Origin: Eledone cirrhosa
Taxonomy: Eukaryota
Assembly: GCA_964016885.1 (NCBI GenBank)
Contig: OZ024740.1
Span: forward strand, 349,370,001-349,434,000
Direction of reading: 5' to 3'
Length of the DNA stretch: 64,000 nucleotides
Notes under the pieces: generated by a model
What the model saw: only the letters and a program-made list of their open reading frames with translations
Told to the model about the DNA's origin: nothing
Database searches by the model: none
Translations under genes and position numbers: made by a program
Shown here: positions 1 through 28,552 of the stretch, in pieces
Layout of the letters: each line of letters begins with the position of its first letter
Numbering within the stretch: position 1 is the stretch's first letter

Positions 1-909
1 CATCACTGTTTCAAGCTTTACTATTCTTTACTATTTAATCTTAAATTAAAGGACTTTGTAATACATATTATATATATATTGTGATAACCTTTGTATTGAA
101 AATGTATATTTTTATGAGAATATACATATACTATATATTAATTGGTTTATAAAATAATTGTATTTTTATATTTAATAAAGTTTGGTAAACAATGTTCGTC
201 TTTGATCTTTTCTTTCTTTAATTTCTCTAAACTGTCCAAAACATTTATTGATTATGTTAATATTCAGGTAACATGTGTTACATTGTCAGCTGTGACATTG
301 AGTACTTGATCCCGTGATTTTTGTTCAGTCAATGTATATACATATTTATTAATAATAATCTGCCTGATTGATAATAATAGTTACAACAAATTCCATATGA
401 ATTAATCTTTTCATCTATCTGCCTATCTGTATATCAATCTATCTATTATTCTATCTGTCTCTATATCTATACAAACGAGTGTAATTATGTGTGCTTTTGT
501 GTGGAAAAATAAACATAATCCACACACACACACACACACACACACACACACACACACACACACACACACACACACACACACACACACACACACACACATT
601 CATATATGTATCTATATCTATACCAATATATATCTCTATATATAAAACAGAGGATGTCTGTCTGTCTGTGTAAATCCCTAAAACAGGAGAAGTACCCGAC
701 TGATTTTACACATGCGTTACTTATCTTTCTTGAAGTGCAATGGGCTAAAAAAATAAGGCGTGACTTAATGATAATCCAGCCGATTTTGCTCGAAATGTGC
801 AGTACACATTAGTTAGTCCTCGAATTGCTTTGGATTAAAAAAAAGCGTATAATATTTCGCTAAAAGTTTGGTTAATTTAACAGAGGACACAACATTTACT
901 TACTTTTAA

Positions 910-1693
910 GCAGGACCATATTCGGAGGATTGAGGAAATGAGGAGGACCTTAAAACTTTTGTCGGCTCCCTGTTGACGTTTCGTGTTTTCATCACGCGCA
1001 AATTCGAGCCCTGTGTACGTTGGCGTGTTATTGACACAGTAAAACTCACGTCTGTGCTATTTTTACTAATACTCCTTTTGTTGCACCTACACCGCAGAAT
1101 GAACGCCCCGCGCAAGTACGCCGAACAGCGGTTGTGTTAATTCCACGGTGACCCCCACTTGAAATTGTTGATGTTGATCCCAATGGTAATTCCGAAGAGT
1201 TCGGCATCCGATGTCACAGTTCGCTCTATATCAGATCGGGTAGATTTACGAAGAGGCTATCGTCTCCTGTGGGGAGGGCCCAGCATGCTGTGCGGTTGCA
1301 TGGCATGTCTTACTCAAGCATTGCAGGCTTTACTCTGTACAGTATGCATGCAGGTATAATAGACATAAATGATGATGTCTGTCCAGATGACTAGGTGCGA
1401 ATCTATAAATCTCCAAAGGTACCTAACCGATTTTCTCCAAATGGAATAAATCATACTCTAAGATTTAGTTCGCTTAAAGAGTATCCAGCTGATTTTCTTC
1501 AGATTTTGCACAGATGTTTCACGATTCGGGCCTGCTGGTGTTTCCAGTAGATGAACAATCACTCCCTGAGAATAAGGGAATTCAAAAAGTACACAGCTAC
1601 ATTCCTCAATCTTTGCGTATGCGTGTTGCTATTTCCCGTTTCCTACCCCGTGCAACGCCGGCTCCTGCTGCTAATAAGCAAAGAGATATTTAA
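910..1693 (+). pseudogene. Decayed intronless coding-like segment of unknown origin, copy 1
   Basis: GC-richer island in very AT-rich flanks. It gives a long reading frame (GNEEDLKTFVGSLLTFRVF...PPLEIVDVDPNG...HAVRLHGMSYSSIAGF...GLLVFPVDEQSLPENKG...NKQRDI*) broken by a few stops and frameshifts. No family recognised. Confidence 0.4.
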
Positions 1694-2117
1694 CATATAT
1701 ACTCACCAAAATTATTTATATAAATATTTATATAAATATCTTGTTGTAATATAATAAAGTAAATCTACTTACAACCTTAATTCTTCATAAAATATACTTA
1801 TAAATATTATCTATATAATATTATAACTCACGATTAGAATAGATCCAATAATTAGTACTATCTCTCAATTTTTAAAATTGGTATTCCACCACTTCAACAC
1901 ATTTATGATTCTCATATTATTTCATAGATATTACCAAAATATAATTATAATTAAATATATACATATAATTATATCACTCTCTTTACACCATCACTGGCAT
2001 GACCCTTATAGTTATATTTTAATAATTGTTTCTACTTTTGGCACAAGGCCAGCAATTACCCAGTGCATTATTGTTAATAATAATAGTGTATTTCTAACTA
2101 TAATATACTTTGTGTAT

Positions 2118-2220
2118 AGTAGAGTACATGCACTGCTGGCACTCCAATGAAGGCCCGTATTGTGGACCCGTTTTATTTTCACTTTCTTCATTGGAGTGCC
2201 AGCAGTGCATGTACTCTACT
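2118..2220. repeat. Perfect 35-bp inverted repeat with a 33-nt loop (copies at 7243-7345 and 27030-27132)
   Basis: agtagagtacatgcactgctggcactccaatgaag ... cttcattggagtgccagcagtgcatgtactctact. Confidence 0.9.
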
Positions 2221-24722: not shown

Positions 24723-25820
24723 AAGCAGTCATATTGAAAATTATAAAACTGCGTTGTAACGCAAAATGTATTCATGATATGAAACATTCAGTTGACCACC
24801 ATGTGGTTTTTGTTATATATATATCGATATATATATAGATATATATATAACCCCATATATCCTATATGCTTATCCTTTATTCTATTTCTTTCAATCTTAA
24901 TTTTTACATTTTAAACATCACTGTTTCAAGCTTTACTATTCTTTACTATTTAATCTTAAATTAAAGGACTTTGTAATACATATTATATATATATTGTGAT
25001 AACCTTTATATTGAAAATGTATATTTTTATGAGAATATACATATACTATATATTAATTGGTTTATAAAATAATTGTATTTTTATATTTAATAAAGTTTGG
25101 TAAACAATGTTCGTCTTTGATCTTTTCTTTCTTTAATTTCTCTAAACTGTCCAAAACATTTATTGATTATGTTAATATTCAGGTAACATGTGTTACATTG
25201 TCAGCTGTGACATTGAGTACTTGATCCCGTGATTTTTGTTCAGTCAATGTATATACATATTTATTAATAATAATCTGCCTGATTGATAATAATAGTTACA
25301 ACAAATTCCATATGAATTAATCTTTTCATCTATCTGCCTATCTGTATATCAATCTATCTATTATTCTATCTGTCTCTATATCTATACAAACGAGTGTAAT
25401 TATGTGTGCTTTTGTGTGGAAAAATAAACATAATCCACACACACACACACACACACACACACACACACACACACACACACACACACACACACACACACAC
25501 ACACACATTTATATATGTATCTATATCTATACCAATATATATCTCTATATATAAAACAGAGGATGTCTGTCTGTCTGTGTAAATCCCTAAAACAGGAGAA
25601 GTACCCGACTGATTTTACACATGCGTTACTTATCTTTCTTGAAGTGCAATGGGCTAAAAAAATAAGGCGTGACTTAATGATAATCCAGCCGATTTTGCTC
25701 GAAATGTGCAGTACACATTAGTTAGTCTCCTCGAATTGCTTTGGATTAAAAAAAAGCGTATAATATTTCGCTAAAAGTTTGGTTAATTTAACAGAGGACA
25801 CAACATTTACTTACTTTTAA

Positions 25821-26605
25821 GCAGGACCATATTCGGAGGATTGAGGAAATGAGGAGGACCTTAAAACTTTTGTCGGCTCCCTGTTGACGTTTCGTGTTTT
25901 CATCACGCGCAAATTCGAGCCCTGTGTACGTTGGCGTGTTATTGACACAGTAAAACTCACGTCTGTGCTATTTCTACTAATACCCCTTTTGTTGCACCTA
26001 CACCGCAGAATGAACGCCCCGCGCAAGTACGCCGAACAGCGGTTGTGTTAATTCCACGGTGACCCCCCACTTGAAATTGTTGATGTTGATCCCAATGGTA
26101 ATTCCGAAGAGTTCGGCATCCGACGTCACAGTTCGGTCTATATCAGATCGGGTAGATTTACGAAGAGGCTATCGTCTCCTGTGGGGAAGGCCCAACATGC
26201 TGTGCGGTTGCATGGCATGTCTTACTCAAGCATTGCAGGCTTTACTCTGTACAGTATGCATGCAGGTATAATAGACATAAATGATGATGTCTGTCCAGAT
26301 GACTAGGTGCGAATCTATAAATCTCCAAAGGTACCTAACCGATTTTCTCCAAATGGAATAAATGATACTCTAAGATTTAGTTCGCTTAAAGAGTATCCAG
26401 CTGATTTTCTTCAGATTTTGCACAGATGTTTCACGATTCGGGCCTGCTGGTGTTTCCAGTAGATGAACAATCACTCCCTGAGAATAAGGGAATTCAAAAA
26501 GTACACAGCTACATTCCTCAATCTTTGCGTATGCGTGTTGCTATTTCCCGTTTCCTACCCCGTGCAACGCCGGCTCCTGCTGCTAATAAGCAAAGAGATA
26601 TTTAA
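25821..26605 (+). pseudogene. Decayed intronless coding-like segment, copy 3
   Basis: Direct copy of 910-1693. One frame runs 25821-26462 with three internal stops, and the C-terminal part lies in a shifted frame. Confidence 0.4.
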
Positions 26606-27773
26606 CATATATACTCACCAAAATTATTTATATAAATATTTATATAAATATCTTGTTGTAATATAATAAAGTAAATCTACTTACAACCTTAATTCTTCAT
26701 AAAATATACTTATAAATATTATCTATATAATATTATAACTCACGATTAGAATAGATCCAATAATTAGTACTATCTCTCAATTTTTAAAATTGGTATTCCA
26801 CCACTTCAACACATTTATGATTCTCATATTATTTCATAGATATTACCAAAATATAATTATAATTAAATATATACATATAATTATATCACTCTCTTTACAC
26901 CATCACTGGCATGACCCTTATAGATATATTTTAATAATTGTTTCTACTTTTGGCACAAGGCCAGCAATTACCCAGTGCATTATTGTTAATAATAATAGTG
27001 TATTTCTAACTATAATATACTTTGTGTATAGTAGAGTACATGCACTGCTGGCACTCCAATGAAGGCCCGTATTGTGGACCCGTTTTATTTTCACTTTCTT
27101 CATTGGAGTGCCAGCAGTGCATGTACTCTACTTTACCTCACTTCATTGTATTTTGTTTTGGATGTAAGGTGTTTGTTGCAGACTGCCTCTGTGGAGAAAT
27201 CCTCTATGCGTGTATTTGGAAATCTAGTGTTATATCGCCTAATGCTTGGAACTGGAACCAGTAGATAGAGGGTGGTGGCCGGATAAGGATAAATCAACCT
27301 GTTACAAGGCGATACTACTGGAGTGCACCATCTTTCCTATAAACAATCCTGCCTGTATAACTGCACCACATCTAACAAACTTTTCTGTTTACTGACTCCT
27401 GCTTACAAGCTTTCATACTCTGCCTGTAAATCATGTATTTGCACTGCTTGTTTGTTTTTTGATCATGCTCAGTAACACTCTCATTCATTTCTTGCTCTCC
27501 TCTCTCAACCTCCTTCTGATAAACTTTTGATGTAATTTTTTATGACATTATATGTATCATGTGTTGTGTGTTGCTCTATACAGCGCTGGCTTGGGACCCC
27601 CCTACTTGTCCTTTTTCTGGTGACTAGGCTCGATGGAGCCTGCTCCGATGATTCCTGCCTTAGGGTATGGATGAAACACTGTTAGAAAATAAAACAATGT
27701 ATTTCTAAGCACTCTTTGGTTATTCCTAAACTTATATATAAATATATATATATATATATATATATATATATAT

Positions 27774-28552
27774 AGTTAGGGAAGCAGAAAATTGGTTATT
27801 GTAATCCAGTTCGTAGTTAAGACAGCCAGTTTTATGGACGGTTTCAACGTACGGTTAGGGGTAACTCCACAAGTTTGTAAGAATCACGTTCAATCTTGGA
27901 GTGTAAAGGATGAAAGAGAAAACACAGGTAAGCATTAAAAAAAGATGATTATGAATATCAAATTCAAAAAGCGGAGGAATAATAAACTCCAGAATGACAT
28001 GAATACATTCCTAAAAAATCTGCGAACCACCAATGGAATTATTTTCAAAGCGGACAAAACCTCAAAGGTGTATACGATGGATATTAATACATACCATAGC
28101 TTCATACGGAAGGAATTACATAGGAAATCCAAAAAACTAACGGGACGGCACTGATAAACATAAACAACGAGGCACACAATATAGTCAAACGCCTAGGAAT
28201 AGAGGACAGAATGGAGTCACTGAGGCCATTTACCCCCACATTTAATCTCAAGAACCATAAGGTAAATTTTGATTATAACCCCACAATTAGACTTATATAC
28301 CTGTCCAAATCGGACATTGGGAAAATTAGTAAACATATATTAGACAGAGTGATAGCACAAATGAAAAATAAACTAGTAATTAAACTATGGTGTAACACTA
28401 CCGAAACAATTAAATGGTTTAACAATATAGCTAACAAAAAAGTATCTAAGTTTATACAATTTGACATTAACGACTATTACTCCTCTATATCTCCCAACAC
28501 CTTGGATAAAGCCTTAGCATTCGCCAAAGCCAATTCTGACCTGACAGACGAC
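27774..28552 (+). mobile_element. Naiad-type PLE fragment at the outer end of the palindrome arm
   Basis: Mirror of 5763-6540; the RT is cut off after ANSDLTDD. Confidence 0.85.

Follow-up and report, generated by a model that had tools for sequence, protein, structure and literature searches.

Inverted IL-17 gene copies and Penelope-like element sequences at their turning points in Eledone cirrhosa

In this study, we analysed a stretch of 64,000 nucleotides from the octopus Eledone cirrhosa (GCA_964016885.1, contig OZ024740.1, positions 349,370,001 to 349,434,000, forward strand), hereafter the window, in which a unit carrying an IL-17 gene is repeated in alternating orientation between sequences of Penelope-like elements (PLEs). 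Self-alignment of the window sequence revealed three copies of this unit in the order plus, minus, plus, namely the tail of a first copy (U1) followed by U2 and U3, and no assembly gap was present before 57454. Positions 5763-14923 form an inverted match of 28552-19387, and 1-2876 matches 24916-27774 directly and 9471-6585 inverted; the alternating order and the arms of about 9.2 kb, both claimed in the original prediction from the sequence, were thus recovered. Between U2 and U3, 92 of the 8234 aligned bases (1.12%) are different, and the 2.8 kb shared by all three copies differs at 17 of 2799 (U1/U3), 34 of 2797 (U1/U2) and 31 of 2809 (U2/U3) positions, or 0.61-1.22%. Both spacers between the copies contain a module A or its 85-bp tail, (TA)n, an array of the 522-bp module B and one reverse transcriptase (RT) family, which we assign by motifs to the Hydra clade of PLEs. 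The features are as follows, where J denotes a junction within the module B arrays.

1-2834, plus strand: U1, the first unit copy, represented by its 2.8-kb tail with module A at the end; the IL-17 exon of this copy precedes window base 1 and is not visible
2690-2834, plus strand: module A, a degenerate type I hammerhead-like 3' end (core 2747, relaxed scan) that precedes (TA)n
2893-3993: first B array, consisting of B1-522, B1-187, J (3602-3617) and inverted B522-143, centre of the tail-to-tail turn (self-alignment)
3994-4821: segment X, starting with an 11-bp snap-back inverted repeat at the B junction; its 45-bp end also occurs at 37001-37045 (sequence comparison)
4822-6540, minus strand: Hydra copy, 3'-truncated at element position ~1704 (sequence comparison)
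6643-14923, minus strand: U2, inverted unit copy with IL-17 (self-alignment, Pfam)
10209-9685, minus strand: exon 2 of IL-17 in U2, with exon 1 predicted near 11751 (gene prediction)
14682-14790, plus strand: module C, a type I hammerhead (core 14692, strict scan passed) forming a PLE-type 3' end; mirror at 19619 on the minus strand
14788-14923, plus strand: h', a copy of the Hydra 3' untranslated region (UTR) at 18830-18967; mirror at 19387-19523 (alignment)
15013-16267: central PLE-type palindrome, consisting of A tail, (TA)n, B404-522, B1-522, J, inverted B187-1, B522-404, (TA)n and inverted A tail (self-alignment)
15880-15965, plus strand: type I hammerhead motif of module B, core 15892; others at 15424, 3540 and 3018 on the minus strand (custom scan)
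16304-19355, plus strand: (AG)n and the central Hydra PLE, in the right arm only (tblastn, alignment)
19387-27732, plus strand: U3, unit copy with IL-17 (self-alignment, Pfam)
22656-22670 and 24198-24722, plus strand: predicted exons 1 and 2 of IL-17 in U3, separated by an intron, 179 aa (gene prediction)
27775-28552, plus strand: 778-bp Hydra 5' fragment at the outer palindrome end (self-alignment)
13413-13517, plus strand: fragment of the endonuclease C-terminus of another PLE family, 81% identical in amino acids to the element at 48.7-51.0 kb; mirror at 20889-20984 (sequence comparison)

The true centres of the two turns lie within the module B arrays. With 16304-19355 left out, the arms 15485-5763 and 15831-28552 align colinearly over ~9.7 kb, with 102 of 9558 columns mismatched (1.07%), along the path B, (TA)n, A tail, (AT)n, h', C, the whole unit, A and Hydra. 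The head-to-head turn (U2/U3) is therefore symmetric about the 345-bp loop at 15486-15830 in the B array, and the central Hydra element is an asymmetry of one arm; the 4.4-kb spacer as symmetry centre was rejected because the arms continue to this loop. The tail-to-tail turn (U1/U2) consists of inverted 380-bp B arms (3035-3414 and 3614-3993, 99.2% identical) around a loop of ~200 bp, and in its right arm X and the truncated Hydra copy replace B1-142, followed by (TA)n, A and U2. Both loops hold the same junction J, in which B187, a short TA run and inverted B522 are joined and only the run lengths differ. The original claim that PLE and hammerhead modules build the turning points therefore stands in that both turns are centred on the same B inversion junction, but fails for the 4.4-kb spacer. 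Divergence of the B arm (3/306, 0.98%) matches that of the whole arm (1.07%), and both A tails of the central palindrome begin at the same base. At a diagnostic site the right A tail matches the A of U1, which is the B-associated version, and the left A tail has a private change. Because J is shared and the right A tail matches the A of U1, the head centre likely arose by copying of the tail centre. The arrangement expected of a seeded palindrome, with a short repeat and spacer kept centrally and arms copying one flank, was found at the inner turn and in part at the outer one.

The sequence suggests that module B was likely left by a Penelope-like insertion, as it forms a partial tandem plus an inverted copy with outward ends at (TA)n. 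Its 522-bp unit carries on the minus strand a hammerhead motif, present in four copies, 126 nt from the B end, with stems of 6/6/5, the first pair of stem II being mismatched; no match to it arose in 30 shuffles of 29 kb, and no stretch with the exact motif was found in metagenome contigs. The original prediction of hammerhead modules at the turns was upheld for B by a custom scan and for A by the relaxed scan only (CC core, 2-bp stem I), while C is a third module that it had not named. The relaxed scan returned nine matches in the array, all of families A, B and C, and two in the flank, against 0.03 per 64 kb in shuffles, and for 10 of the 11 a (TA)n follows 96-245 nt downstream; the hammerhead-like cores in the flank are at 59183 (plus) and 59526 (minus). 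The minimum-energy fold was hammerhead-like for C only (z -1.95), not for A or B, and Rfam gave no hammerhead in A, B or C (positions 1-32000 plus three short stretches), with only chance microsatellite or miRNA matches. The A copies at 6643-6790 (minus) and 27600-27732 (plus) have a common 29-bp deletion, and the last ~100 nt of C occur as a dispersed copy at 34740-34838 with the same end base before (TA)n; no blastn relationship was found between C and A. Hammerhead cleavage was rejected as the source of the A-tail start, which lies ~14 nt before the predicted cleavage site. Non-LTR retrozymes, as described in bioRxiv 10.64898/2026.07.22.740005, also have a non-coding tandem unit with one type I hammerhead per unit, whereas B, with its predicted hammerhead, comprises only 1.2-1.4 tandem units per arm and includes an inversion.

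Hydra PLEs are described as encoding an RT followed by a C-terminal GIY-YIG endonuclease, with RWK, DKT and CxCx5C motifs and a preference for (TA)n targets (PMC8557442), and it is by motifs against such published descriptions that the RT family at the spacers is placed in this clade. In the central element the RT (16539-17527) precedes the endonuclease region (18170-18600, C-terminal GIY-YIG), and the copy is colinear in tblastn with relatives of 702-806 aa and with an element at 37-44 kb of the window. That element gave a weak Pfam GIY-YIG match under the cut-off, and Pfam gave no match in the central copy itself. The family has DKT together with CxxC, E, N and CxH; the first Cys of the linker is Arg in the central copy, and CxCx5C is intact in the 37-44 kb element and in five of the six relatives scanned. 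Most of the relatives also have DKT. RWK was present in five of the six relatives scanned, and the RWK region is missing from all three local copies. The original prediction had named the family Naiad, an identity that we rejected since the GIY-YIG is C-terminal rather than N-terminal to the RT and the motif is DKT, not the DKA that with an upstream CxC domain marks Naiad; the truncated copies encode nothing upstream of the RT. Its statement that the two spacers hold the same parts is accordingly correct except for the family name, and the outer palindrome end at 28552 does fall within an RT, though one of the Hydra clade, where it abuts single-copy flank. The features shared with Hydra-1_Obim (PMC8557442) are the domain order, DKT, CxxC/E/N/CxH and the (TA)n targets, and the B hammerhead and the motif listed for that element agree in having U at the cleavage position. 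Unlike Hydra-1_Obim, the local copies are 5'-truncated and frame-broken, have the Arg in the linker and yielded no intact hammerhead: three scans within 16342-19355 found no canonical hammerhead near the Hydra 3' end.

The local Hydra copies also record how they are related. All of them lack the first ~80 codons and have the same head junction, and one frame break is common to the two copies that extend to it; the frame of the central copy is broken near 16580, 17255 and 18410. The central copy differs from the arm copy at 60 of 1700 positions (3.5%), and it carries the arm base at six of the nine sites where genome-wide contigs differ. The first ~170 nt of the local copies include an inverted match to the last 36 nt of the central copy, consistent with the usual inverted head. 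Intact Hydra ends all abut (TA)n or (AT)n(AG)n. As had been predicted, the inner arm end (14788-14923) copies the 3' UTR of the central element (18830-18967), with 88% identity over 160 nt of which the last 58 nt are identical and about one third is TA/T-run. A query with the Hydra RT yielded no confirmed locus among 113 pattern matches.

To assess copy number, we compared 21060-34200 with assembled contigs of four sequencing runs, and the depths given here come from the 16 pieces listed. Runs X1 and X3 represent one sample, probably the assembly's own, and X4 and X5 are restriction-site-associated DNA sequencing (RAD-seq) of other individuals; depth was taken from single contigs with 0-4 differences, as summed k-mer depth is no copy number. 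Per-contig k-mer depth in X1 was 37.6-45.4 for three arm contigs and 5.5-8.6 for five flank contigs (ratio of means 6.2), and in X3 it was 41.6-50 versus 7.2-7.8 (ratio 6.0). At nine of the 15 listed variant rows within 21820-24717 the contig base was in neither U2 nor U3 (40 of the 346 rows shown overall), and since U2 and U3 agree there, further copies or alleles exist. These results imply about three copies beyond U1-U3, or ~6 in the cluster. Mean RAD-seq depth over nine arm and five flank bins, picked as non-repetitive, was 1.57 versus 0.11 in X4 and 1.19 versus 0.27 in X5, which points toward a multi-copy unit but is too thin to count. Halved depth over the arms, which the original prediction had named as the sign of mis-joined haplotypes, was therefore not what we found: with ~6x flank depth, three distinct copies and extra alleles, one locus with mis-joined haplotypes is excluded.

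The IL-17 gene was identified in both arms (Pfam PF06083, score over the cut-off), and its best protein matches were octopus IL-17-like proteins of 49-57% identity (seven matches). Each full copy has a predicted five-codon exon 1, a 1.5-kb intron and exon 2, with a SINE-like repeat (short interspersed nuclear element) upstream of exon 1 at ~21970-22160; in the unit tail, 25450-26770 and 26930-26990 are dispersed repeats with contig depths of thousands to hundreds of thousands. Exon 2 (24198-24722 versus 9685-10209) is the most diverged part of the arms, with 17 of 525 positions different (3.2%) and 11 amino-acid changes, which cluster at residues 112-123. Positive selection on the gene found no support in this comparison (pN 0.030, pS 0.043, pN/pS ~0.7, Fisher p 0.55). 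Both copies (24198-24722, plus; 9685-10209, minus) lack four cysteines kept in all six aligned octopus homologues, among them the final Cys of the C-terminal CxC and two Cys of the CRCxxC stretch, with the frames open; they may represent a fewer-disulfide variant or decaying genes. The AlphaFold model was uninformative (pLDDT 38).

Several properties of the arms bear on how they were copied. The intron and the high-copy SINE-like repeat are retained in both arms, and the outer junctions at 28552 and 4822 lie away from (TA)n, the preferred target of Hydra elements. Apart from its 45-bp end, which adjoins (TA)n at 37001-37045, segment X had no other match in the window, and repeats such as the 11-bp snap-back at the B/X junction occur at 17 of 53,199 window positions. 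Snap-back repeats of this kind can be left by DNA end-joining. Neither a target-site duplication nor pseudo-long terminal repeats (pLTRs) of one family framing the unit are visible, and (TA)n could hide a duplication. Divergence along the arms is uneven (0.4% in the distal tail versus 3.2% in exon 2; chi-square p 1.3e-4), and the differences among the three copies form a mosaic (runs test p 0.006), suggesting that gene conversion has mixed the copies; the 1.1% may therefore understate the age of the arms.

The flank is itself rich in PLE sequence, with 12,081 of its 35,248 bases (~34%, from hand-drawn intervals) being PLE-derived. At 37033-44536 (minus), a second Hydra family is arranged in a permuted partial tandem with a 1.58-kb overlap at 98.7%, split by a 2.9-kb TA/CA satellite, one copy being 3'-truncated straight into (TA)n. 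Two PLEs of another clade with C-terminal GIY-YIG, at 48037-51345 and 53004-56340 (both plus), start after (TA)n or (TA)n(AG)n, and (TA)n followed by (AG)n recurs at the PLE-adjacent tracts 16304-16341, 20504-20544 and 52939-53003. Long (TA)n tracts in the flank that abut PLE ends or short inverted repeats are at 34744, 37039, 48005, 52854, 59592 and 59984, and short near-perfect palindromes stand beside (TA)n at 52490-52763, 58960-59161, 59757-59991 and 59570-59640.

With moderate confidence, we suggest that a short inverted repeat in module B, likely left by a PLE, was the seed from which the adjacent 8-10 kb were duplicated at the DNA level, by fold-back or template switching. The geometry, the shared junction and the copy excess are directly seen; each step and its place in the order, and a break as against a replication error as the start, we infer. 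In such a course, B would have inserted into (TA)n behind A at the unit tail in the tandem-plus-inverted form of PLEs, creating J, and a fold-back at the B repeat would have made the tail-to-tail copy U1/U2. A Hydra copy may then have come to the (TA)n of that arm, with end-joining replacing part of B with X. Next, the segment A tail-(TA)n-B-J would have been copied to the (AT)n at the unit head, where it would have seeded the head-to-head turn U2/U3, with resolution within the Hydra RT at 28552; either the right arm would have gained the central Hydra, or the left arm would have lost it between (TA)n tracts, and gene conversion would afterwards have mixed the copies. Fold-back is favoured because a short repeat and spacer are preserved at the centre of a large palindrome, and the sharing of J by both turns suggests that the B repeat existed before at least one turn. 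Copying at the DNA level is favoured because the intron and repeats are kept, the outer junctions are off (TA)n and a snap-back stands at B/X, and because the Hydra copies share a head junction, a frame break and private bases. The link between duplication and PLE modules made in the original prediction is probable, and sharper through the shared J, but nicking by a PLE enzyme or copying through RNA is unsupported by the sequence.

A number of observations weigh against this fold-back explanation. The tail-to-tail turn is asymmetric, 2.5 kb of X and Hydra having replaced B1-142, and calls for additional events; the central Hydra element, at 3.5% divergence, looks older than the arms; and no duplication was seeded by three further short inverted repeats of the flank (arms 78-116 nt). 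Both centres are one copied junction rather than independent, and the chance of PLE DNA at two independent breakpoints is ~0.12, so that, with about a third of the flank PLE-derived, enrichment alone is weak evidence. Every arm-to-spacer transition also crosses (TA)n, and switching at TA gives the same picture: the self-complementary (TA)n tracts might be the switch points, with PLE modules there through (TA)n targeting and the B palindromes being normal inverted insertions. The (TA)n preference of Hydra elements, the many flank tracts that abut PLE ends or short inverted repeats, and h', for which the central Hydra appears to have been the local template through homology of TA/T-runs, agree with this account. 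It nevertheless appears unlikely, as the small B/A-tail palindrome and the 9-kb arms would have to share an axis by coincidence, and the B arm and long arm are equally diverged (0.98% versus 1.07%), with both A tails beginning at the same base.

No read or contig bridges a turning point among the pieces aligned to 21060-34200, and X1 and X3 probably come from the assembly's own sample, which likewise tell against our explanation; because no read spans a turning point, the orientation of the copies is unconfirmed. The copies might then be real but wrongly ordered or oriented, if the assembly graph reversed at the B palindrome and followed a different copy or haplotype in the opposite direction. 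Inverted structures of PLEs are a known source of assembly problems (PMC8557442), ~1% divergence is within the possible haplotype range, and the contig at the outer junction 28552 carries only 30 letters of the Hydra side, one below the bridging threshold. We consider such an error improbable, since the sequence has no gap before 57454, the arms differ by a 3-kb element and private substitutions, the three distinct copies come with further alleles at ~6x rather than 1-2x depth, and chimeric fold-back reads would yield near-identical arms. Equally improbable in our judgement is that PLE enzymes built the array, either by GIY-YIG nicks at (TA)n priming both strands or sisters, or by reverse transcription of a long intron-retaining RNA. 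Purified Poseidon PLE is reported to cleave and extend both strands, to prefer AT-rich DNA and to start reverse transcription internally (PMC11167929), and in Adineta vaga a gene with an intron was mobilised by PLEs (PMC3846280). The unit is framed by hammerhead ends that point outward, C and A, and an RNA step could account for A tail-(TA)n-B-J reaching the unit head. However, unlike in A. vaga, the unit has no target-site duplication or terminal repeats of one family, C and A being unrelated by blastn; its outer ends are not at (TA)n, insertion could create J only once, and all three local Hydra copies are broken. By analogy with the in vitro Poseidon work and A. vaga a direct role of a PLE enzyme is plausible, and nothing in the sequence demands one. 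Returning to the fold-back explanation, we regard as doubtful its extension in which B is a mobile palindrome seed, where an active PLE would copy B with J between unit ends and nick the adjoining (TA)n, each landing triggering a fold-back and thus a self-extending germline zig-zag.

Yeast, Leishmania and tumours all provide examples of palindromic amplification seeded by short repeats. Fold-back priming after a break predicts a short repeat at the palindrome centre, for which repeats of 42-229 bp suffice in yeast and hamster cells (PMC7999016), and origin-dependent inverted-repeat amplification (ODIRA) yields an inverted triplication by template switching at the fork (PMC10766183). The IL-17 array resembles both in its large arms around a kept short inverted repeat, its plus, minus, plus order and its copy gain, but it is apparently germline, fixed or segregating, in an animal immune-gene cluster and has a PLE-type seed; moreover, ODIRA as described uses two different repeats, whereas here the same junction serves both turns. 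In Leishmania, inverted amplicons arise at SIDER retroposon repeats (PMC4028189), so that retroelement-derived inverted repeats are there too a platform for inverted duplication of host genes, although those amplicons are extrachromosomal, linear and formed between two dispersed repeats, while the IL-17 array is chromosomal and involves one tandem/inverted insertion. In A. vaga, PLE termini also adjoin an intron-containing member of an expanded gene family, but that gene moved to a new site with same-family pLTRs and an 8-bp target duplication (PMC3846280), and the IL-17 copies are local, inverted and unframed. PLE insertions are described as yielding short inverted repeats through partial tandem and inverted copies (PMC8557442); we found no paper linking PLEs to fold-back amplification among the 4-15 best-ranked entries per search of the open-licence literature. 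Inverted-repeat-seeded palindromic amplification is thus already known, and what is new here is the PLE-type seed.

If inverted repeats left by PLEs seed large palindromes, PLE-rich genomes, such as those of cephalopods and many invertebrates, would gain a route of gene-family expansion at the DNA level, distinct from the known RNA-level capture of genes by PLEs. In O. bimaculoides, an IL-17 expansion of 31 genes lies in tandem on one scaffold, and such clustered expansions are described as tandem duplications with no mechanism stated there (PMC8353272); if true, the seeding of palindromes by PLE insertions would offer a testable origin for them.

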